64,000 nt of DNA from an uncultured Gammaproteobacteria bacterium (GTDB lineage Bacteria; Patescibacteriota; Microgenomatia; UBA8517). Location: NCBI GenBank assembly GCA_964541395.1, contig CAZIPM010000001.1, forward strand, positions 3,833 to 67,832. Direction: 5' to 3'. Of this stretch, positions 10,953 to 22,117 are shown in pieces. The notes beneath the pieces are model-generated. The model worked only from the letters and a program-made list of their open reading frames with translations. It was not told the origin of the DNA and searched no databases. Numbering within the stretch: the first letter of the stretch is position 1; each line of letters opens with the position of its first letter. The position numbers were made by a program, and so were the translations under genes.

Positions 10953-11216
10953 ATGAAAAAAATAGCTAAACACTTACCGCACTATATTAGCCTGATAGGT
11001 ATCTTGGTAGCCTCAATTTTTGCCTTTATACTTTTTTCATATGACCAAGTTTTTTTACTGGGAATTGCAGTTGCCACTTCAACTTCTTATTTTTCTTGGG
11101 GAATAATTCACCATTTACTGCATGGAGATTTAAATTTTAGTGTGGTTTTAGAATATATGGCGATTTCGGTTCTCGGAGCTGTCCTTCTGATTTCATTGCT
11201 TTTTAGAGCTGTATAA
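10953..11216 (+). CDS. small integral membrane protein (2-3 TM), hypothetical
   Basis: 87-aa hydrophobic ORF directly downstream of the CAP gene. Confidence 0.35.
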   Translation: MKKIAKHLPHYISLIGILVASIFAFILFSYDQVFLLGIAVATSTSYFSWGIIHHLLHGDLNFSVVLEYMAISVLGAVLLISLLFRAV

Positions 11217-11275
11217 GGGTATAATTTCAGGTGCTTTGGGATTAGTATAGTCGAAAGACAAAGTATTTAATTATT

Positions 11276-12169
11276 ATGAAAAAAGTCAGAAAGGCAGTCA
11301 TACCAGCAGCTGGTTTTGGTACGCGCTTTTTACCCCAGACCAAGGCTATGCCCAAAGAAATGCTCCCCATTGTCGATAAACCGGTTATTCAATATGTGGT
11401 TGAAGAATTGGTAGATGCAGGTATAAAAGATATTTTTATAGTCACCGGTTACCACAAAAGGGGAATTGAGGACCATTTCGACGCTCCAAACCTGGATCTG
11501 ATTGAAAATCTTAGAATGGGTGGTGAGAAGAAAAAACACTTATTGGAGGAAGTTGAAAAGATCTCCAATATGGCCAACTTTGTCTATGTCAGACAAAAAG
11601 GACCGTATGGAAACGGAACTCCTCTTTTAAATGTTAAGCATCTCATAGGTGACGAACCCTTTATTTATACCTGGAGCGATGATTTTATTGTGTCTGAGCC
11701 AAATAGGTTTAAGCAATTAATAGCTGCATATGAAAAATACGGTGTCAGTTGTCTGGCAGGGTTAAGAGTCAAAAATGATGAAGACTATAGCCGTTATGGT
11801 TTTGCCGGTGGAGAGGAAATTGAACCGGGAATCATTGATTCGAAAGTGATTATAGAGAAACCAGGTAAAGAAAATGCACCATCAGACTTAGCTACAGTAT
11901 CCGGTTATTTATTTACTCCGGATATTTTTAATTATTTGGATGAAGTTTTGAAAAATCTGCAGGAAGGGGATGAGTTTTACTACAATGATGCCCTTAAGCT
12001 GATGCTGAAGGATCACAAGAAAGTTTTGGCTGTGGAGATAAAAGACGGAAAATACTACGATACAGGCAATAAAATGGAATATCTTAAAACAGTAGTCGAA
12101 TTTGCCTTAAAACATAAAAGTTTAAACGGAGAGTTTAAAAAATATTTGGCTTCACTTGATCTGTCATAA
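11276..12169 (+). CDS. galU: UTP--glucose-1-phosphate uridylyltransferase
   Basis: N-terminus KAVIPAAGFGTRFLPQTKAMPKEMLPIVDKPVIQYVVEE is near-identical to the GalU consensus. Confidence 0.9.
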   Translation: MKKVRKAVIPAAGFGTRFLPQTKAMPKEMLPIVDKPVIQYVVEELVDAGIKDIFIVTGYHKRGIEDHFDAPNLDLIENLRMGGEKKKHLLEEVEKISNMANFVYVRQKGPYGNGTPLLNVKHLIGDEPFIYTWSDDFIVSEPNRFKQLIAAYEKYGVSCLAGLRVKNDEDYSRYGFAGGEEIEPGIIDSKVIIEKPGKENAPSDLATVSGYLFTPDIFNYLDEVLKNLQEGDEFYYNDALKLMLKDHKKVLAVEIKDGKYYDTGNKMEYLKTVVEFALKHKSLNGEFKKYLASLDLS

Positions 12170-12193
12170 TATTATATTAATCCAGTCCTTCTG

Positions 12194-12223
12194 TTGCCGA
12201 TAAATACATTTAACCTGTATAAT
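12194..12223 (+). promoter_or_regulatory. candidate sigma70-like promoter for rfbB (TTGCCG-N18-TATAAT, TG immediately upstream of the -10)
   Basis: Read directly from the sequence. Only about 14 nt separate the -10 from the ATG and there is no SD, so the transcript may be leaderless or short-leader. Confidence 0.3.
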
Positions 12224-12237
12224 ACAAAGCGCTTACT

Positions 12238-15219
12238 ATGAAAGTACTCATTACCGGTGGAGCAGGATTTATAGGGTCAAACTTCATTTACTATTGGTTA
12301 AAAAACCACCCCAAAGATAAAATACGAGTTTTAGATGCTTTGACGTTTGCCGGTAATAAAGATAATTTAAAACCTGTTCTTAAAAAATTAGAATTTATTG
12401 AAGGAGATATAACCAATAGGGATCAGGTAAAATCTGCAATGAAAGGTATTGATACTGTTGTCCATTTTGCCGCAGAAAGCCATGTGGACAGATCAATTTT
12501 TGAACCCGGCAAGTTTTGGAAGACCAATGTAGAAGGTACAAGAATTTTACTCGAAGAAGCTCATTATGCAAAAATACCAAGATTCCATCATGTGTCCTGC
12601 TATGACACGCAAACCAGGGCATTTACAAAAGAAGGTCTCAAAACTTATGATCAGATGAAAATTGGAGATTTGGTATTAAGCATTAATCTAAAGACTCAAG
12701 ATGTTGAATGGAAACCGGTTGAAAAGGTCATCATTCAGGACTACAAAGGAAAAATGATTCGGATGAAAAGTAAAGTTGTTGACTTTTTTGTGACTCCAAA
12801 TCACAGGATGCTTGTTCAGGCAAAAAGAAGCAGGGATTTATCTTTTAAGGATGCAAATTTTGTAAAAGATCAGGCTAGGAATTTCCTTCCTTATTACTAC
12901 CAGTGGAAAGGCAAATCTTCCAAAATTATTAAACAATTCGGTACTTGCCAAAAAGAATTTATGTATCTGCTGGGAATTTTTATCGGTGACGGATTTACTG
13001 CATATCAGGAAAAAAAACAAATCAACAAAACAGGATTGTCAAAACAGATGTATTGTCAGTTAGCCAGAGACAGTATGGGTAGGTTTATGCAAGTCTGTCA
13101 GATTGGGGATCAAAAATATACGATATCAAAATCATGGAGGATATTTTTGGATATTCCTGAAAAGGATGAGTGTAGAACCATGTGTGAATCCGCACTAACA
13201 AGACTAGGTATAAATTGGCATGCCCACAAAGGTAAGGCGGGAACTCATTTGTATATGACCTCAAAAAAGTTATTTGATATTTTTTCTGATTGTGGGAAAT
13301 ATGCAAAAAATAAACAAATTCCCGATTGGGCAGTGGATGCGCCACTGGAACTGTTGATGAATTTATGGAATGGATTGATGGATTCGGACGGAAGCAATCA
13401 TCGGGTGTTTTTTACCATTTCGCCTAAACTAGCCTATCAGTTTATGGAGCTAAGCGTAAAACTTGGTTACACTCCCACATTGAGTAAGCGATACACAAAA
13501 TCAATTTATGAAGGTCGAAATATTGAAGGTTGGTCATATGTCATATCGGTCGGATCAAGGCAAAGGATTTTAAGGAAAGAAATTTCTGAGGAAGTTGATT
13601 ACGATGGGAAGATTTGGTGTCTTAAAGTCAAAAACAACAAAAATTTCTTAATTGAAAGAAATGGAAGAACCGCTTTCTGTGGAAATACCGATGAGGTTTA
13701 TGGTGAACTGCCTTTGGATTCTAACGAACGCTTTAGTGAAAAAACTCCATATGCTCCCAGACCAGACAATTTGTATGCAATCAGTAAAGCTGAAGCAGAT
13801 AGGGTGGTTAGGGAGTTCTACAAAAGTACGGGAATGTATTTGACCATTTCTAACTGCTCCAATAATTATGGTCCATTTCAATTTCCTGAAAAATTTGTAC
13901 CCATTCTGGTTACCAACTTGATCGACGGACTTAAAGCTCCCGTTCACGGAGATGGGAAAAATGTCAGAGATTGGATACACACGGATGATCACGCAAAGGC
14001 TGTTGATTTAATTTTGGAAAAAGGAAAAGCTGGTGAAACTTACTTGGTTGGGAGTAATGTAGATGTTGCCAATATATACATTGCAAAACATATAGTAAAT
14101 CTGTATGGCAAAGATGAAAGCTGGATCCGTTATGTCCCTGACAGACACAGTAATGACAGAAGGTATGCAATCGATTCAAGAAAAATAATTCAGGAACTTG
14201 GTTGGAAGCCGGCTATAACCCGAGACAATTTTGATGATGGTTTAATGGATACTATCTCCTGGTATAAAAAGAATAAAGATTGGTGGAAGCCGCTTCTTTC
14301 CAGACAAACAGTAGTAGTTGACGGTGACAGTAAAATTTATGCATTTATAGAAATTGATAGGGAGTTAGGTAAAACCAAATTTAATTATGGTGAACCTGAA
14401 GAACACAACAAAGTTTCTAAACTTGCCGAAAAGATGATGGAGGAAGATCCCAGGAAAATATCTCTAATTAAAAAGAAAATCAAAAGTCACTATTGGTTTA
14501 AAAATTCTAAACCTGCTATACAAGACTCACTATTGGAACTTATTAAAATATCCAGAACATCAGGGTTTATTGAAGATCTGGCCAACAGACCGGAGGTTGT
14601 TGGTGGGTACACACAAAATAAAGTAGTTAAATTTGAACATTCACCAGACAAAAAACAAATCTATGGTGTAGCTATCTGGTTTGAAGTTGAAAACACTAAA
14701 GGTGAGAAACACATAGAAGGCTTTTATTCATGGGCTATGGGGGTTAAATCGGGAGCCAAAATGTTGGTTTTAATCCGTTACAAAAACGAAATAACCCATT
14801 TAGCCCTGACTAAGGAACAAAAATTTGCAATAGGTTCAGAAATCTACAATATGCCGGGAGGATTTCCAAAAATAAATGAAAGTGTTTTTGATTTGATACA
14901 CAGAAAACTTGAAGATGATTTGGGAGTGGATGTTAAAGACGGACATATTAAAGTCGGTGATATCATAGGTTTGGGTAGGATCATGCCTGATCCAGGTATG
15001 ACCAATAACCATCCATTTCTTTATGCCATAGTTTTAGATCTGACTGAAAACATCTTTCCCCCAATTAGAATCGGAGAGGTCTATGAAACAGGGGGAAAAT
15101 TGGTACTATGGCCTATTGAGAGATTATCTGAGCTGGTAAATAAAGTAGACGACTCATATTTCCTATCCTCACTTACAAGACTAATGCTTTCAGGGGTTAC
15201 TAGTCTAAAGTTAAATTAA
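12238..15219 (+). CDS. rfbB: dTDP-glucose 4,6-dehydratase interrupted by an intein, with a C-terminal Nudix-hydrolase-like domain fused
   Basis: Extein N: MKVLITGGAGFIGSNF...RFHHVS. Extein C: TDEVYGELPLD...YAPRPDNLYAISKAEAD...NYGPFQFPEKFVPI... (RmlB signatures). After about residue 700 comes an extra 300-aa domain with a degenerate Nudix box, PGGFPKINESVFDLIHRKLEDDLGV. Confidence 0.85.
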   Translation: MKVLITGGAGFIGSNFIYYWLKNHPKDKIRVLDALTFAGNKDNLKPVLKKLEFIEGDITNRDQVKSAMKGIDTVVHFAAESHVDRSIFEPGKFWKTNVEGTRILLEEAHYAKIPRFHHVSCYDTQTRAFTKEGLKTYDQMKIGDLVLSINLKTQDVEWKPVEKVIIQDYKGKMIRMKSKVVDFFVTPNHRMLVQAKRSRDLSFKDANFVKDQARNFLPYYYQWKGKSSKIIKQFGTCQKEFMYLLGIFIGDGFTAYQEKKQINKTGLSKQMYCQLARDSMGRFMQVCQIGDQKYTISKSWRIFLDIPEKDECRTMCESALTRLGINWHAHKGKAGTHLYMTSKKLFDIFSDCGKYAKNKQIPDWAVDAPLELLMNLWNGLMDSDGSNHRVFFTISPKLAYQFMELSVKLGYTPTLSKRYTKSIYEGRNIEGWSYVISVGSRQRILRKEISEEVDYDGKIWCLKVKNNKNFLIERNGRTAFCGNTDEVYGELPLDSNERFSEKTPYAPRPDNLYAISKAEADRVVREFYKSTGMYLTISNCSNNYGPFQFPEKFVPILVTNLIDGLKAPVHGDGKNVRDWIHTDDHAKAVDLILEKGKAGETYLVGSNVDVANIYIAKHIVNLYGKDESWIRYVPDRHSNDRRYAIDSRKIIQELGWKPAITRDNFDDGLMDTISWYKKNKDWWKPLLSRQTVVVDGDSKIYAFIEIDRELGKTKFNYGEPEEHNKVSKLAEKMMEEDPRKISLIKKKIKSHYWFKNSKPAIQDSLLELIKISRTSGFIEDLANRPEVVGGYTQNKVVKFEHSPDKKQIYGVAIWFEVENTKGEKHIEGFYSWAMGVKSGAKMLVLIRYKNEITHLALTKEQKFAIGSEIYNMPGGFPKINESVFDLIHRKLEDDLGVDVKDGHIKVGDIIGLGRIMPDPGMTNNHPFLYAIVLDLTENIFPPIRIGEVYETGGKLVLWPIERLSELVNKVDDSYFLSSLTRLMLSGVTSLKLN
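12598..13686 (+). mobile_element. intein (363 aa) with a LAGLIDADG homing endonuclease, inserted between Ser and the catalytic Thr of the RmlB 'TDE' motif
   Basis: It begins with C (CYDTQTRAF, block A) and has block B VTPNH. Two LAGLIDADG motifs are present (LLGIFIGDGFT and LWNGLMDSDGSN). It ends ...NFLIERNGRTAFCGN followed by T(+1)DEVYG. The host motif FHHVS|TDEVYG is perfectly restored once the insert is removed. Confidence 0.8.
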
Positions 15220-15226
15220 TATATTT

Positions 15227-15553
15227 ATGGACGTTATAAAATTAGATGGTGAAAATGGAGAAAGAAGGCCTTGGAATGGTAATGTAGTCGTAGAGCTTTC
15301 TAAGATTATCTCAGACCTACGATCCAAAAACGTACCCACTAAAAAGATAGTCAAAGAATTAAATAAAGAAGATAAATGGCACCCTCAAGATGTAATGGTG
15401 GCATTTGCAAGCAATGGTATTCGTTCAATTGTAGAGCGGGATGGAGAGGAAGTTTTTTTCCATATAGATACTGTTGGCGGAGGGAATGTTAATGGTCCAC
15501 GCGAAGAGTTGTTAAAATTACCTTCAATCAAGTGGGAAACCTTCAAAGACTAG
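15227..15553 (+). CDS. hypothetical protein
   Basis: 108-aa ORF tightly following rfbB. No recognised motifs. Confidence 0.35.
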   Translation: MDVIKLDGENGERRPWNGNVVVELSKIISDLRSKNVPTKKIVKELNKEDKWHPQDVMVAFASNGIRSIVERDGEEVFFHIDTVGGGNVNGPREELLKLPSIKWETFKD

Positions 15554-15708
15554 ATACCCTGTAGTAATTGTTTGTTTAGCTTCAATTTGATATAATACAC
15601 CCAGGTTTGAAGTACTTTGAAAACCTAAAGAAAGAGGCATAAGGCGGTAGGATTGGACACCCTATTTGCGAACAGCCTAATATAGTCATCAGCTTTGAAA
15701 GGAAAAAA

Positions 15709-17088
15709 ATGAACATCCAAAGCATGAATGAACTACCAGAAAGCGTGTTAAAACGCCTTCCTCGGAGTGCAACATTTCCGATCAAGGGCAGTCAGCAGGC
15801 GCTGGTAGGCAGAATCGACTGGGCGAAACAGGTGATAACCCGCGCAGTCGTTACGACCGAATGGCAAAAGTCGGCCACATTCGAGGGACGAGTTCCCGAA
15901 GAGTTTATGGCCAGTTTGCCGAAAGATTTCACCTTCTCGGTAGATTCTCCCGAGGATCACTGGCAAATTCATCTGACGGGTCTGAACCCCAGAACTTTTG
16001 AGGTTGAAGATCTTAAGGTGATCCGCGATGATGCAAAGTTTTGGTACTACATCATGGCGGCAGAGAATCAAATGGCGGTGCAGGAATATGAGCTTGTTTT
16101 CGCGCGCGTGTGGGGCTATCTTGCTCCCATTTTGCGCATCCGCGAAGGCTCTGCACAGCCGATGACTGGTCGAAGGTTAATTACCGTTGAAACAGCAGGA
16201 CCGGGTGGATACATTGGTGCTGTAGTGCCGAGCCTCCAACTGACTGATCAGTGGAGACTGCTGGTGCAAAAAGCAAACAATGTCTCTCCAGACCTGACAG
16301 CAATCCCAACGATGCGGTCAGTGCGCTTCTCCGTCCAAAATCCGGACAGACCTCAACCTAGGGAAAAAGCCATGGGCTTCTCCTTGTATGAGGTGGATTT
16401 GTTCCCCGAGCTAATCGCTTCGGGAGCAGCGGAGGAAAAAGGCAGAGTAAAGAATAACTTCTATTGGTGCTTGCCGGATTTTGAAGCACCGGAAGGACAG
16501 TCTTTCATGCCTCTGGGAGACTACCTTCGATACTCAGACGGCCCAGGAATGGCAGCGCTTTATCAGGCCATTGTTTTCCTGTTTCGTGCAATCGTGGGTG
16601 GTGAGCTCCCCGGCCAGCGTGATGAGGTAGCAAATTTCCCAGTTGACCCGAAAGAGTCATATGGGACGCCGATTCGCGTTGGTATTATTCGTCACAGAAA
16701 AGTGACCTTCGTGGTTTGCAAGACCAAAAACCAAGGTCGCTTCCGGCGGAGTGGCGAAACACTAGCAGCATCACAAGTTGCATGTGAGTTTGATCCGTCA
16801 ACACTTCCTGTCCCACCCAGGAAGGTTCACAAGTTTTGGGCAATCAACCCAAATAACCAGCGTCACACTGGTACAAACACCGCCGCAGGTCTCTATCCTG
16901 TGGAGGTCTATGAGTACCATAGCTGGGAAGTGGACAAAGGGGAACTGGAAATGGTGAACTTGTGCGATTTCGCACGATCTGGCGATGCCAGAGCACAAGC
17001 AGCACTACTTCAGTGGATCTGGTGGGTGTATCCAGGATTTGCAACTTTGAATCCGGATACTGACAGTATTCCTTCGTCCGAGGAATAG
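15709..17088 (+). CDS. hypothetical protein encoded in a GC-rich (about 50%) compositional island; likely horizontally acquired
   Basis: A long uninterrupted 459-aa ORF whose codon usage and GC are strikingly different from the about 33% GC surroundings. I recognise no family. Flanked by hairpins. Confidence 0.55.
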   Translation: MNIQSMNELPESVLKRLPRSATFPIKGSQQALVGRIDWAKQVITRAVVTTEWQKSATFEGRVPEEFMASLPKDFTFSVDSPEDHWQIHLTGLNPRTFEVEDLKVIRDDAKFWYYIMAAENQMAVQEYELVFARVWGYLAPILRIREGSAQPMTGRRLITVETAGPGGYIGAVVPSLQLTDQWRLLVQKANNVSPDLTAIPTMRSVRFSVQNPDRPQPREKAMGFSLYEVDLFPELIASGAAEEKGRVKNNFYWCLPDFEAPEGQSFMPLGDYLRYSDGPGMAALYQAIVFLFRAIVGGELPGQRDEVANFPVDPKESYGTPIRVGIIRHRKVTFVVCKTKNQGRFRRSGETLAASQVACEFDPSTLPVPPRKVHKFWAINPNNQRHTGTNTAAGLYPVEVYEYHSWEVDKGELEMVNLCDFARSGDARAQAALLQWIWWVYPGFATLNPDTDSIPSSEE

Positions 17089-17445
17089 AAAATACTGTCT
17101 AGTACTTCAGACTTAACACTTTGTTCTATACACCCCGAATTTGGGAAATATTATAAACCCTGTTCGGGGTGTATGAAGTGAAGGTAAGTGTTTGCCACAG
17201 TTTCCAATGCGGAAACTGATTGAGGCGAGCGCTAGCCTTTAAATTTGAATCGGGTGCTTATTGTATAGCATTCGAAAGGATAGATGGAATGCTTCCATCT
17301 GGGACTTCCGGGGAAATACCTGGAAACAAACCCAAAACCCTTTCGAAAAAATAAAAACAATAAGTACCCGCCCAAATATATGATTTTAAATCTTGTTGAA
17401 ATCATGTATTTGGGATGAATATGTTTATGCTATAATCAACTTAAC

Positions 17446-18207
17446 TTGGACGATTCACACAAGAATTATGAAGGGTATTTAGCCTTCGTAAATAAATATA
17501 AATCTTCATTAGGATATAAAGGCAATTACTCCAAAAACGAAATTGAAATTGTTGACGATATCTCATTATTTCCTACTTGTGAAGAATCTGCAGTTGGTCA
17601 AATGGTAAAGCAGGGAACCCCGCGTGAAGATGCAGTGAAAAGGGCAAGGATAGGAATTAGGGAAGAAAACAGATGGGGAGTTTCAATTTGTGAACCTGTA
17701 AAACTACCAACGGGGACATACGGAACTTTTATCAGATTTATTTCTTGGGGACAATTGGATTCTGGATTTGCGGGTATGATAATTATTCCTGTATTGACAG
17801 ATGGCAAGTTGATTTTTACTAAAGCATTCAGAAACGCCACCCGAAATTGGTGTTTGGAATTTCCAAGAGGTACAAGAGATCCGGGGGATTCCATATTAAA
17901 AACTTTAAATAGCGAATTAAAAGAGGAAGTCGGAGCTAAAGTTTTAAAAGACCCTGTTAAAATAGGAGAAGTCTTTCCTGACTCAGGTATCTTAACCTCA
18001 ATAGTTGAAATATATAAAGCAGAAATTGAGATTGTAGGTGAGGCTACACCTGGCGTGACTGAAGCCATAAAAGGCTTAGTATTTTTGACTCCCGAAGAAG
18101 TAAAGGCGTTACTTAAATCACAGCTTTATATAGATGAAGATGGAAAAGGGTATGAATTTAAGGATAGTTTTACACTGGTTGCATTAACGCTATTTAATAT
18201 ACGATAA
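17446..18207 (+). CDS. Nudix-hydrolase-like protein with a degenerate Nudix box; paralog of the C-terminal domain of the rfbB fusion
   Basis: ...LIFTKAFRNATRNWCLEFPRGTRDPGDSILKTLNSELKEEVGAKV aligns with ...LALTKEQKFAIGSEIYNMPGGFPKINESVFDLIHRKLEDDLGVDV of the rfbB C-terminal domain. It starts at a TTG; the true start is uncertain. Confidence 0.5.
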   Translation: MDDSHKNYEGYLAFVNKYKSSLGYKGNYSKNEIEIVDDISLFPTCEESAVGQMVKQGTPREDAVKRARIGIREENRWGVSICEPVKLPTGTYGTFIRFISWGQLDSGFAGMIIIPVLTDGKLIFTKAFRNATRNWCLEFPRGTRDPGDSILKTLNSELKEEVGAKVLKDPVKIGEVFPDSGILTSIVEIYKAEIEIVGEATPGVTEAIKGLVFLTPEEVKALLKSQLYIDEDGKGYEFKDSFTLVALTLFNIR

Positions 18208-18481
18208 GTTTATCTATACGAAGTTATGAACCTCATTTAAACATGAACCTCTTGGATGAAAAAGATAGAAAAAAAAGAAAAGGCCTAATAAAATTGAGTA
18301 CAAAATTATCTAATTTAAATAATGACAAAAAAATTGTACACCCAGAGAATTAGCAGACATACTGAAAAATAGAATTAATAGACTTAAACTAAATAAAAGG
18401 TTAATGTTTGAGACTGTTTTTTATCTTGTTATCCCGAAATTTCAACTTGACAAATTGAAATTTAAGGGTCATACTATCTCT

Positions 18482-19696
18482 ATGAAGCCAAGAACAATCT
18501 CGAAATTGATTCATAAGGTGATTAAAACTTTTCCTGCGATTGTTTTAACAGGCCCGAGACAGTCAGGTAAAACAACCCTGTTAAAACATGAATTTCCCAA
18601 CTATCAATATGCAAGTCTGGAGGATCCTGATGTAAGAATCAGAGCCAAAGATGATCCAAACGGATTTTTGAATCAGTTTGAAAAACAGGTTATTTTAGAT
18701 GAAATTCAATATGTTCCAGAACTCTTATCATATATAAAATCAAAAATAGATGAAAATAGAATGCCGGGAAAATGGATTTTATCCGGATCCCAAAATTTTT
18801 CTTTGATGAAGAATGTAAGTCAATCATTGGCAGGAAGAGCTGCCATCTTGACACTCCTACCCTTTTCCGTTGCTGAAAGAATTGGGAACGGGAACGGCTC
18901 ATTATTGGTAGATAAAGTTTTAAGTTTAAGTAGCGAAAGTAATTTAAAATCAAAATTTGATTTAAACGAAATTATTCTCCGTGGTAATTACCCTGAAGTG
19001 GCTAGTAATACAAAAGTTGATCGTCAAATCTGGGATGGATCTTATATCAATACATATCTTGAAAGAGATATTAGAAACTTGAAACAAGTAGGTGATTTAG
19101 GTCAATTTGAAATATTCCTGCGTGCTTGTGCAATTCGTACAGGACAGATATTGGATTTAAGTTCAATATCTAGAGAGATTGGAATTACCTTTACAACGGC
19201 TAAAAGATGGCTTTCACTTCTGGAAACTGGTTACCAAATATTTCTTTTACATCCATATTATCGAAATATCGGAAAGAGATTGGTTAAAAGACCAAAAATT
19301 TACTTTGCTGATACCGGGCTTGCCACTTATTTAATGGGTATAAATTCTGTTAACAGTTTAGTTTCTAGTTACCTTTATGGGGCAATTTTTGAAACATTGA
19401 TAGTTACTGATTTTTGGAAAAGATACTTTCATCATGGTCAAATTCCTCAGATGTACTTTCTACGAACGCATGATGATTTAGAGGTTGACTTATTAATCGA
19501 GAATCAAAATAAGCTGAATTTGATTGAAGTTAAATTAACATCAACAGTTAGAAAAGAGAATATCCAATCTCTTATCAAAGCGAGGACAGACATCAGAGGT
19601 GTTGATAAAACATTGGTTATCTCAAATACTAAGGAAAAGTTTTCTGTTGTTGAAGGGATAACCAATATTCCTGCGGAGTCGGTGTTAACTGTCTAG
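18482..19696 (+). CDS. AAA-family ATPase with DUF4143 C-terminal domain
   Basis: MKPRTISK...VLTGPRQSGKTTLL (Walker A) ...QVILDEIQYVPEL (Walker B-like), the typical AAA_14/DUF4143 architecture. The track start at 18404 adds 26 residues that are probably not translated. A TTGACA lies upstream at about 18446. Confidence 0.65.
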   Translation: MKPRTISKLIHKVIKTFPAIVLTGPRQSGKTTLLKHEFPNYQYASLEDPDVRIRAKDDPNGFLNQFEKQVILDEIQYVPELLSYIKSKIDENRMPGKWILSGSQNFSLMKNVSQSLAGRAAILTLLPFSVAERIGNGNGSLLVDKVLSLSSESNLKSKFDLNEIILRGNYPEVASNTKVDRQIWDGSYINTYLERDIRNLKQVGDLGQFEIFLRACAIRTGQILDLSSISREIGITFTTAKRWLSLLETGYQIFLLHPYYRNIGKRLVKRPKIYFADTGLATYLMGINSVNSLVSSYLYGAIFETLIVTDFWKRYFHHGQIPQMYFLRTHDDLEVDLLIENQNKLNLIEVKLTSTVRKENIQSLIKARTDIRGVDKTLVISNTKEKFSVVEGITNIPAESVLTV

Positions 19697-19730
19697 TTTC
19701 TAAAGGAATAATGGTATAATTATTCTTAAT

Positions 19731-20315
19731 ATGATGCGTTTTGACCCTGATAAACATGTTAAAAAAACTTCAATTGCAGGAGTTGTTTTAATTGAAAGAC
19801 CAATCATAGGTGATGCCAGGGGATTTTTACATGAACCGTACAATAGGGAAGAATTAAAAGCAGCAACAGGTGTGGAATTTAACCCTGTCCAGTGGACTCA
19901 TGCATACATAAAGCCCGGAGTTATAAAAGCTGTTCATAGTGAAGACTGGAATAAACTAATTTATCCTGTAACTGGAATTTTATACGCTCCTATTGTAGAT
20001 CTAAGGCCAGAATCTGAGACTTTCGGTAAAGTAGAATACATTACAATAGACAACACTAAAGATGATTCTCCAAGGCAGGCATTGTTTTTACCCTCGGGAG
20101 GTATCGGGAATTCAATTTGTACACCAGGTACTGAAATGATGCATTATTTTTATTTGATAGATGAATATTGGGATGATGCCAAAGCCAGGGGAATTGCCTG
20201 GGACGATCCAGATCTTAATATCAAATGGCCAATAGAAAACCCAATTCTTTCCGAAAGAGATAAAACCAATCCGACATTAAGGGAGGCTTTTCCCCAGAAA
20301 TTTAAAGACAAATGA
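19731..20315 (+). CDS. rmlC: dTDP-4-dehydrorhamnose 3,5-epimerase
   Basis: Cupin-fold RmlC signatures: GDARGFLHE, YAPIVDLRPESETFGKVEYI, FLPSGGIGNS, IAWDDPDLNIKWP. Confidence 0.85.
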   Translation: MMRFDPDKHVKKTSIAGVVLIERPIIGDARGFLHEPYNREELKAATGVEFNPVQWTHAYIKPGVIKAVHSEDWNKLIYPVTGILYAPIVDLRPESETFGKVEYITIDNTKDDSPRQALFLPSGGIGNSICTPGTEMMHYFYLIDEYWDDAKARGIAWDDPDLNIKWPIENPILSERDKTNPTLREAFPQKFKDK

Positions 20316-21217
20316 AAAAGATTTTAGTTGTAGGAGCAACTGGATTAGTGGGATCAAGATTTGTTTCTTTGGCTAAAGATAAAGTTGGAATAATCCCCGT
20401 TGATGAAAATACACTGGATATAACATCTGCTGAAGCTGTTGATAATTACTTTTCCGAAAATGAATTTGATTCAGTATTAAATTTTGCAGCAATTACAAAT
20501 GTAGATGCAGCAGAGAAAGAAAAAGGAGATGAAAATGGAATTACCTGGAGATTAAATGTGGTTGGTGTTGAGAATTTAACCAAAGCTTGTATTAAATATA
20601 ATAAATTTATAGTTCAGATTTCTACCGACTTTATTTTTAAAGGAGATCAGAACAATCCAGGACCGTACAGTGAAGATGCAGAAATTCCCGATAGTATGGA
20701 TGGAATTGGTTGGTATGGATGGACAAAGAATAGGGCAGAAAATTTACTCCGCAATTCCGAGTGTCGTAATGTGATTGTCAGGATCGCCTACCCTTTTTAT
20801 TCGGCTGAGTTTACACCAAAATTGGATTATGCAAAAAATTATTTAAAACTTCACGATGATGGAAAATTATTCCCTATTTTTACCGACCAGACATTATCAG
20901 TTATTAATGTAGATGAATTGGTAGAACCACTTCTCAAAATCTTAACAGAAGAACTTATAGGCACTTTTCATATTGTTTCAAGCAATACCACAACACCATT
21001 TGATTTTGTGGAATATTTACTTAGAAAAGCAAGAAATGTAGAAGGTGTTGTTCAGAAAGGGTTAATGGAAGAATTCTTAAAAGCAGAAGGAAGAACACCA
21101 AGACCAAGATTGGGAGGGTTTAAGACTAAATTTACTGAAAAAAACTTAAATATGAAATTTAAAACTTGGCAGGAAATGGTGGATGAATTTGTTATCAGGC
21201 TCCAAAATAAGAAGTAA
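20312..21217 (+). CDS. rmlD: dTDP-4-dehydrorhamnose reductase
   Basis: N-terminal Rossmann MKKILVVGATGLVGSRF; ISTDFIFKGD...PYSEDAEIP...YGWTKNRAENLL follows the RmlD pattern (STDYVFDG..PY.E.D...P...YG.SK..GE). It overlaps rmlC by ATGA. Confidence 0.8.
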   Translation: MKKILVVGATGLVGSRFVSLAKDKVGIIPVDENTLDITSAEAVDNYFSENEFDSVLNFAAITNVDAAEKEKGDENGITWRLNVVGVENLTKACIKYNKFIVQISTDFIFKGDQNNPGPYSEDAEIPDSMDGIGWYGWTKNRAENLLRNSECRNVIVRIAYPFYSAEFTPKLDYAKNYLKLHDDGKLFPIFTDQTLSVINVDELVEPLLKILTEELIGTFHIVSSNTTTPFDFVEYLLRKARNVEGVVQKGLMEEFLKAEGRTPRPRLGGFKTKFTEKNLNMKFKTWQEMVDEFVIRLQNKK

Positions 21218-21461
21218 CTCCGTTCTCAATTAATTGAAAATCTTTATCTACATCTGAAATTTGTTCTTCCATTGAAAATATTGGTCTTACTAGTTTTATC
21301 ACAATCCCTTCATCGTTTCGGCCAACACCAAATATTCCACCAGGTAAGTCTTTAATTCCCATATCTTGAAGTTGTCTTGTTCTAAATTCTTGGACCTCAC
21401 TATGTGTAACTTCGGTGCCACCTATTGGAGCAGTACGGGCCATTACTAGTTCTAATTCCAT
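21195..21461 (-). CDS. hypothetical small protein (possibly PRC-barrel-like), immediately downstream of trmD
   Basis: 88-aa ORF 15 nt after the trmD stop. It is not ribosomal protein L19, which is the usual trmD neighbour. The assignment is weak. Confidence 0.3.
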   Translation of the reverse strand: MELELVMARTAPIGGTEVTHSEVQEFRTRQLQDMGIKDLPGGIFGVGRNDEGIVIKLVRPIFSMEEQISDVDKDFQLIENGVTSYFGA

Positions 21462-21475
21462 ATTTTGTTAGGAGT

Positions 21476-22117
21476 TTATGTCCGTTTTCTCCAAATGTCA
21501 ATATTTTTATGATTACCCGTAAGAAGAATTTCAGGTACTCCCCATTTTTTATAAAGTGGAGGTCTGGTGTATTGGGGATACTCAGTCTCAATCTCTTCCA
21601 TGGAATGTGACTCTTCCAGAAGCGATTCTTTTTTAATAACTCCAGGGATCAAACGTGTTACGGTGTCAGTTATCACCATTGCAGGAATTTCACCACCTGT
21701 TAGAACATAATCTCCTATGGATATAATCTCATCAACTATATGGTCATGAACCCTGTGATCAATTCCTTCATAATGGCCACAAATAAGAACCAAGCGTTTT
21801 AAGCTTGAATACTCATATGCTTTTTTTTGAGTAAACTTCTCTCCTCCTGCATCCAAAAGTATTATTTTACTGTTTTTGGATTTTGGTTTTGCTTTAATGG
21901 AAGTTAAGGCATTATCTATGACATCGATTCTTAAAATCATTCCCGCACCACCTCCATATGGCCTGTCGTCAACTGTTTTTCTTTCGGTAATCCCAAATTG
22001 TCTTAAGTCATGAAAGTTAATTTCTACTAAACCTTTTTCTTTTGCCTTTTTTAAAATTGACATGTCAAATGGACCGCTAAACATGTCAGGAAAGAGGGTA
22101 ATAATATCAACGATCAT
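21476..22117 (-). CDS. trmD: tRNA (guanine37-N1)-methyltransferase
   Basis: MIVDIITLFPDMF...RPYGGGAGMIL...LICGHYEGIDHRV...GDYVLTGGEIPAMV: canonical TrmD SPOUT motifs. Confidence 0.9.
   Translation of the reverse strand: MIVDIITLFPDMFSGPFDMSILKKAKEKGLVEINFHDLRQFGITERKTVDDRPYGGGAGMILRIDVIDNALTSIKAKPKSKNSKIILLDAGGEKFTQKKAYEYSSLKRLVLICGHYEGIDHRVHDHIVDEIISIGDYVLTGGEIPAMVITDTVTRLIPGVIKKESLLEESHSMEEIETEYPQYTRPPLYKKWGVPEILLTGNHKNIDIWRKRT

Follow-up and report, generated by a model that had tools for sequence, protein, structure and literature searches.

Why should a dehydratase of rhamnose synthesis continue for some three hundred residues beyond its own end, and what kind of protein is the continuation? 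The question is raised by a stretch of 64,000 nucleotides, here called the window (assembly GCA_964541395.1, contig CAZIPM010000001.1, positions 3,833 to 67,832 of the forward strand), in which the open reading frame (ORF) for RmlB, the deoxythymidine diphosphate (dTDP)-glucose 4,6-dehydratase, carries a long C-terminal extension. An initial annotation, made from the sequence alone, had seen in this extension a degenerate Nudix domain and had called a free-standing ORF downstream its paralog. In this study we find that the extension contains a module with the Nudix fold, of the ADP-sugar or nucleoside diphosphate (NDP)-sugar pyrophosphatase class. Of the functions it could have, we lean towards that of a pseudo-enzyme, a non-hydrolytic nucleotide-sugar-binding domain acting on RmlB in cis, for which we infer the loss of activity, the ligand and the effect.

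The fused gene and the fold of its extension

The fused gene has the following layout, with residues counted on the unspliced precursor.

12238..15219, + strand: rmlB::Nudix precursor ORF of 993 aa, made up of RmlB, an intein and the C-terminal Nudix-like extension
12238..12597, + strand: RmlB N-extein, residues 1-120, with the GGAGFIGS NAD-binding motif and the last residues ...RFHHVS
12598..13686, + strand: intein of 363 aa, C121 to N483 with Thr484 at +1, inside the catalytic STDEVYG motif of RmlB (split between S and T)
13687..14298, + strand: RmlB C-extein, residues 484-687, with TDEVYG and YAISK (YxxxK)
14299..14448, + strand: linker of about 50 aa, present in fused proteins only, with invariant A15, D20, R21 and G24 and low model confidence
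14449..15216, + strand: Nudix-fold module of about 255 aa (profile positions ~55-302), consisting of a helical N-terminal part, a beta subdomain and the Nudix core
14857..14928, + strand: degenerate Nudix box GGFPKINESVFDLIHRKLEDDLGV, residues 874-897, with G, E and R kept and the E-E-E triad changed to K-D-D

The fused ORF is matched by the dTDP-glucose 4,6-dehydratase equivalog TIGR01181 (369.1 bits; cut-off 365.1) on either side of the intein, and the second of these two stretches stops at residue 686 of 993, at profile position 321 of 321. GGAGFIGS and YAISK are read directly, STDEVYG is restored by splicing, and by these marks the protein is an RmlB. Beyond it lies an extension of 306 residues (688-993, nt 14299..15216) without a match in Pfam, NCBIfam, PHROG or PADLOC; in PHROGs none of the five proteins tested had one. 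The initial annotation had placed the Nudix-like part at residues 700-993 or so, a range counted on the unspliced precursor, the 363-aa intein (121-483) having gone unmentioned.

A word-indexed homologue search with the extension found three proteins only, all at RmlB C-termini, and the AlphaFold2 (AF2) model built from these three was poor, with a predicted local distance difference test score (pLDDT) of 48.6. When 1.84 billion representatives were searched exhaustively with a hidden Markov model (HMM), 118 proteins reached E <= 1e-3 and 93 of these E <= 1e-10. This extension family, of about 118 clusters at 50% identity, consists mostly of free-standing proteins of ~250 aa that cover profile positions ~55-302, which is the portion they have in common with the fused module. 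Among the 94 members scanned against Pfam, PF00293 (NUDIX) is matched individually by 32 (E <= 0.01; best 2.3e-8) and is the only family that recurs, so that no recurring match pointed to a different known domain, which would have spoken against the Nudix assignment. The profile check proposed by the initial annotation thus succeeds at the level of the family and of the fold, although PF00293 misses the window's extension itself (no match at E <= 1; gathering threshold 21.1 bits).

Against the PDB, the extension alone gave only a marginal phmmer match to MutT2 (E 0.44). The profile of the family found human NUDT5 at E 1e-6, followed by AraR (a Nudix-type regulator), NudF and ADP-ribose pyrophosphatases, and the family motif D-x-G-M-T-N-N (P-D-x-G-M-T-N-N) was aligned onto D-P-G-L-S-N of NUDT5. 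On the alignment from the exhaustive search, AF2 gave a model of the extension with pLDDT 85.7 and a predicted template-modelling (TM) score of 0.81, in which helix 196-208 bears the box. The structural neighbours found with Foldseek were NUDT5, a Bacillus methanolicus Nudix protein, a Bdellovibrio NDP-sugar hydrolase, YffH and NudE, at E 1e-11 to 1e-9 and with target-normalised TM of 0.62-0.76; structural alignment with NudF, NudE and NUDT5 covers 160-170 residues and includes the N-terminal sheet. Model and neighbours together have the alpha/beta/alpha sandwich and loop-helix-loop box of the Nudix superfamily, as well as the architecture of the ADP-ribose/ADP-sugar pyrophosphatase subclass, namely an N-terminal beta subdomain before the core and a loop after the box. 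By its fold the module thus belongs with the Nudix proteins of the ADP-sugar/NDP-sugar pyrophosphatase class.

With the known pyrophosphatases of this class (NUDT5, NudF, NudE, YffH/NudK, Bd3179) the module has the two-part fold in common over 160-210 aligned residues, together with the D-x-G loop that follows the box and aligns to DPGLSN of NUDT5. It differs from them in being only 10-20% identical, in an extra helical N-terminal segment, in having no glutamate triad and in its covalent joining to RmlB. A member of the family with another arrangement was also seen: P0044 (L029 7001..8716; L numbers denote related loci), a protein of 571 aa with two extension-family modules in tandem and no RmlB fusion.

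Degeneration of the box and the possible role of the module

The Nudix-box-like segment noticed earlier past the end of RmlB is indeed there, at residues 874-897, where it reads G-x5-E-x7-R-K-L-E-D-D-L-G-V. Family, profile and fold together show that this segment did not arise by chance. Set against the canonical G-x5-E-x7-R-E-U-x-E-E-x-G-U, it lacks the catalytic signature. We compared 14 RmlB-fused sequences, taken from the window, related loci and protein searches, at the positions of the box.

G188, E194, R202: invariant in 14/14 fused sequences
First metal-binding Glu: K in 8, S in 5, N in 1; never E
Second Glu: D in 5, E in 4, K in 5
Third Glu: D in 11, E in 2, K in 1
Box glycine: N or K in one sub-branch

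Free-standing relatives (n=96) have E at the first position in 83 cases and the full E-E-E triad in 65. Since the triad is complete in 65/96 of these and in 0/14 fused proteins, its loss in the sequences compared is tied to the fused state, by rule rather than by accident.

It would be natural to see in such a box the remnant of a decaying domain. This was ruled out, because in the closest pairs the ratio of nonsynonymous to synonymous substitution rates (dN/dS) is the same for the module as for RmlB: L016/L019 give 0.030 (module) and 0.034 (RmlB), and L014/L016 give 0.046 and 0.047. Module and RmlB are thus under the same purifying selection (dN/dS 0.03-0.06). The fused proteins show no variation at about 50 alignment columns. 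Many of these residues are charged, and the set includes K150, K154, H167, R227, D231, D284 and R294.

The reading that we favour, by a modest preference, is that the fused module is a pseudo-enzyme that binds a nucleotide sugar without cleaving it and acts in cis on RmlB. The module would have been derived from a small family of free-standing and mostly active-looking enzymes, and after joining RmlB would have shed the metal-chelating glutamates of its box, which is why it is read as a pseudo-enzyme. It may still bind a nucleoside-diphosphate sugar, such as the dTDP- or uridine diphosphate (UDP)-hexose of the rhamnose pathway, and might sense or regulate the flux through the dehydratase, or keep hold of its substrate or product. 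A cis-acting role is suggested because the fold, the loss of metal ligands, full purifying selection and the permanent linkage to RmlB occur together. Of the two functions first proposed for the extension, a binding-only domain is accordingly the one preferred, the first glutamate having been lost in 14/14 fused sequences, and hydrolytic proof-reading of the dTDP-sugar pool becomes the less likely.

Several points weigh against this reading. In two fused sequences the second and third box positions are still E-E, and aspartate can still chelate Mg2+. GDP-mannose mannosyl hydrolase is active although its box retains only one of these glutamates, and it is from the box residues alone that we infer a loss of hydrolase activity. 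The nucleotidyltransferase of the operon is GalU-like and not RmlA-like, which leaves the ligand either dTDP- or UDP-based.

Non-catalytic Nudix sensors are known. In NrtR and the AraR of Bacteroides a Nudix domain whose box has degenerated binds the ligand for an attached effector domain, and the NUDT9-H domain of TRPM2 is a further non-catalytic Nudix ligand sensor. The effectors there are DNA-binding domains or an ion channel, whereas here the effector would be a metabolic enzyme, and binding by the RmlB-fused module is a prediction. In NadM-Nudix, which joins an NMN adenylyltransferase to an ADP-ribose pyrophosphatase, the box is canonical and active and the partner enzyme is a different one. 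Pseudo-Nudix sensors and enzyme-Nudix fusions are therefore already known, and it is the RmlB partner and the Nudix subfamily that are new; full-text literature searches turned up no account of such an RmlB-Nudix protein. In the classical view rhamnose synthesis is feedback-controlled at RmlA, and a ligand-sensing domain in RmlB, if true, would be a control point other than RmlA.

A less probable view is that the fused module has kept hydrolase activity by way of an unconventional active site, cleaves a dTDP- or UDP-sugar at phosphorus or at C1 of the sugar and acts as relief valve or proof-reader. The box G, E and R are invariant and the third position is acidic in 13/14 fused sequences, purifying selection on the module is strong, and its nearest structural neighbours are NDP-sugar hydrolases. 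There is also a precedent in GDP-mannose mannosyl hydrolase (NudD/WcaH/Gmm) of the colanic acid cluster, which has a reduced box, cleaves at C1 of the sugar and is likewise coupled to an NDP-hexose 4,6-dehydratase, its gene adjoining that of GDP-mannose 4,6-dehydratase (gmd). That protein, however, is small, separate and single-domain, without fusion or N-terminal subdomain, and no specific sequence similarity to the module was detected (no NCBIfam match). The first box glutamate, moreover, is replaced in 14/14 fused sequences, mostly by lysine, and the second position is lysine in 5/14, in a sub-branch that has also lost the box glycine. Catalytic positions that vary while the rest of the domain is conserved form the pattern of a pseudo-enzyme, and the loss, given the triad of the free-standing relatives, goes specifically with fusion.

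It is more doubtful still that the module is purely structural and has no ligand, serving as a dimerisation or scaffold domain that alters the quaternary structure of RmlB or recruits RmlC, RmlD or glycosyltransferases. Nudix proteins of the ADP-ribose pyrophosphatase type (NUDT5, E. coli ADPRase) are obligate domain-swapped dimers, RmlB is also a dimer, and the module retains the N-terminal beta subdomain that is used for swapping. Conservation is nevertheless strongest around the Nudix box and the D-x-G-M-T-N-N loop aligned to DPGLSN of NUDT5, and a phosphate/sugar pocket fits better than an interface because many invariant residues are charged (K150, K154, R202, R227, D231, R294).

Least probable by a wide margin is non-hydrolytic chemistry on the RmlB product in the manner of the EvaA/TylX3-type dTDP-4-keto-6-deoxyglucose 2,3-dehydratases, Nudix-superfamily enzymes that act on exactly this product (PMC8987622) and in whose case a fusion to RmlB would make metabolic sense, because PF03559 (hexose dehydratase) is matched by 0/94 family members at E <= 0.01 and the matches listed for the extension family in the PDB, by sequence or by fold, do not include EvaA; the module, besides, is a single Nudix domain where EvaA has two in tandem, and the operon goes on with rmlC and rmlD and no evident 3-ketoreductase.

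Spread and gene context of the fusion

A survey of related genomes for RmlB-Nudix fusions, as the initial annotation had advised, was productive. In genome and metagenome collections RmlB and the module stand in one frame in about ten independent loci besides the window, among them the complete Candidatus Woesebacteria chromosome CP066686, the complete genome CP129472 and a Patescibacteria metagenome-assembled genome. Since the records name Woesebacteria and Patescibacteria, the hosts, a small group of ultra-small groundwater bacteria, belong to the candidate phyla radiation (CPR). The envelope glycans and nucleotide economy of CPR/Patescibacteria are poorly understood. The members of the extension family that bear any source name are called hypothetical proteins. 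With its roughly 118 clusters the family amounts to a Nudix subfamily that has lacked annotation. It has at least one member associated with 6-deoxyhexose genes, and offers a natural series from enzyme to pseudo-enzyme in which to follow how Nudix hydrolases turn into binding modules. Proteins of 630 aa recorded as 'RmlB' and of ~250 aa recorded as 'hypothetical proteins' can now be labelled.

The neighbours of the fused gene in the window, other than the free-standing Nudix gene treated below, are these.

11276..12169, + strand: GalU-like sugar-1-phosphate nucleotidyltransferase, first gene of the operon (TIGR01099 269 bits, below cut-off; rmlA 42.8 bits)
15227..15553, + strand: orf108, 108 aa, immediately 3' of the fused gene, no family match
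15709..17088, + strand: orf459, 459 aa, GC-rich, inserted between the fusion and the free-standing Nudix gene
18404..19696, + strand: AAA_14 + DUF4143 ATPase, inserted between the free-standing Nudix gene and rmlC (PADLOC phage-defence candidate PDC-S01, E 9e-105)
19731..20315, + strand: rmlC-like 3,5-epimerase (TIGR01221 102.9 bits, below cut-off)
20312..21217, + strand: rmlD-like 4-reductase (TIGR01214 132.2 bits, below cut-off)

The usual order in the related loci is GalU-like nucleotidyltransferase, rmlB::Nudix, rmlC, rmlD, and rmlC and rmlD lie downstream wherever the contig reaches. The GalU-like gene, 79-90% identical in most related loci and 59% in L016, is upstream of the fusion in most relatives; in L013 it is divergent, on the opposite strand. 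Six loci (L001/L012, L002, L010, L011, L013) have rmlC directly 3' of the fusion. A scan of 11000..21500 for promoters and terminators gave counts equal to the expectation from shuffled sequence and is hence uninformative on co-transcription. Since the operon nucleotidyltransferase scores as GalU-like and not as RmlA-like, and the rmlC- and rmlD-like genes also stay under their equivalog cut-offs, both dTDP and UDP are compatible with this gene set, and the pathway might run on UDP- rather than dTDP-sugars. As regards the dTDP-sugar pool to which the extension was first assigned, the nucleotide may therefore be another than dTDP.

A link to such pathways is seen outside the fusion also. P0048, a free-standing member of the extension family with a canonical box, adjoins FdtA, an RmlC-like cupin, a radical SAM enzyme and a GT22 glycosyltransferase; its place among the FdtA, cupin and glycosyltransferase genes connects the whole family with 4-keto-6-deoxyhexose pathways.

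Neither orf108 nor orf459 was found in the related rml loci. The GC content of orf459 is 51% (51.5% at third codon positions) against 34.5% for the window, it has no match in Pfam, NCBIfam, PHROG, PADLOC or PDB, and only 8 homologues were found among 5.8 billion proteins. A hidden Nudix-like protein was considered for it and ruled out, the hhalign probability against the Nudix family being 0.2% with no PDB relative; the hexapeptide NQRHTG is the sole stretch that it shares with a cassette protein of L016. In L032 a homologue of orf459 lies directly upstream of rho, in the slot that the cassette of the free-standing Nudix gene occupies in other genomes.

The intein within rmlB has block B TPNH, two LAGLIDADG motifs (LLGIFIGDGF and LMDSDGS) and the end ...FCGN483 followed by T484, with weak Pfam matches to Intein_splicing, Hint_2 and LAGLIDADG_3. 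These are the features of a class 1 intein with a LAGLIDADG homing endonuclease; the penultimate residue is glycine (G-N end) where histidine (H-N) is usual. No fused relative carries an intein, and the site is uninterrupted in every orthologue recovered (>10 loci), which on the evidence of these sequences makes it a recent invasion of rmlB.

The free-standing Nudix protein and its relation to the fusion

The free-standing gene is named nudix253 here.

17446..18207, + strand: nudix253, 253 aa, TTG start, ADP-sugar pyrophosphatase type with intact glutamate triad
17869..17937, + strand: Nudix box of nudix253, GTRDPGDSILKTLNSELKEEVGA, G-x5-D-x7-S-E-L-K-E-E-V-G-A

That this ORF encodes a Nudix protein, as had been proposed, is borne out by PF00293 (27.8 bits, cut-off 21.1) and by PDB chains of NudF, NudE and ADPRase (E 2e-6 to 1e-4). 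Its box keeps E-x-x-E-E, with S in place of R and D in place of the first E of the signature. The nudix253 family is tight, of about 37 clusters that are all about 250 aa long, and because E157 and E161 are invariant in it and E160 is at least 90% conserved the protein is probably an active hydrolase. Its GC content of 36.5% is native to the window.

As to its being a clear paralog of the fused module, the homology is real but remote. BLASTP aligns the two at 20% identity over 115 aa (E 3e-4), the HMM of the extension family gives nudix253 41 bits, and hhalign of the two families gives a probability of 91% and E 1.1e-6 over 186 columns. By these comparisons they are distant homologues from different subfamilies of the same structural class. 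A recent duplication of the module was ruled out, given the 20-22% identity, a family of its own and the absence of nudix253 from the exhaustive search with the extension profile.

Five independent loci (window, L004/L005, L014, L016, L019) have extra genes between the fusion and rmlC, and nudix253 is the only one common to all five. About half of the nudix253 contexts that could be examined lie away from rml genes. The gene adjoins rho in L006-8, L015, L017, L018, L020 and L023, and assembly GCA_964494885.1 has the fusion (L011) on one contig and nudix253 (L006) on another; the adjacency is therefore recurrent but not obligatory. Beside rho, nudix253 often has an inositol-monophosphatase/FBPase-like gene as its companion, at some loci together with a DUF6016 gene, and in L014, L016 and L019 this set of genes is placed within the rml operon. 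The pairing with a phosphatase suggests a two-step breakdown, NDP-X to X-phosphate to X. Neither partner gene is found in the window. Gene sets of nudix253 with inositol-monophosphatase/FBPase-like and DUF6016 genes were seen at L016 10760..12141, L019 4485..5863 and L020 4075..6307.

Could the two Nudix proteins work together? Nudix dimers of the ADP-ribose pyrophosphatase type have composite active sites, and since these enzymes are domain-swapped dimers a pairing is conceivable in which the fused module joins or gates nudix253, tethering a hydrolase to the committed step of rhamnose synthesis as an enzyme/pseudo-enzyme switch on the NDP-6-deoxyhexose pool; we regard this as a long shot. Those fused boxes that have degenerated furthest (R-S-x-x-K-D, with the glycine gone) occur without exception at loci that also bear nudix253, the fragment P0043 being left out of this comparison of contexts.

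In L004 the gap between the fusion and rmlC holds more Nudix genes, one of them for a free-standing member of the extension family and another for a 239-aa protein homologous to a PF00293-positive ORF of 274 aa in L017. Three mutually divergent Nudix genes, for an extension-family member, the 239/274-aa NUDIX protein and nudix253, are thus clustered in both loci (L004 2943..6762; L017 1..3362), the cluster being placed within the rml operon or beside rho.

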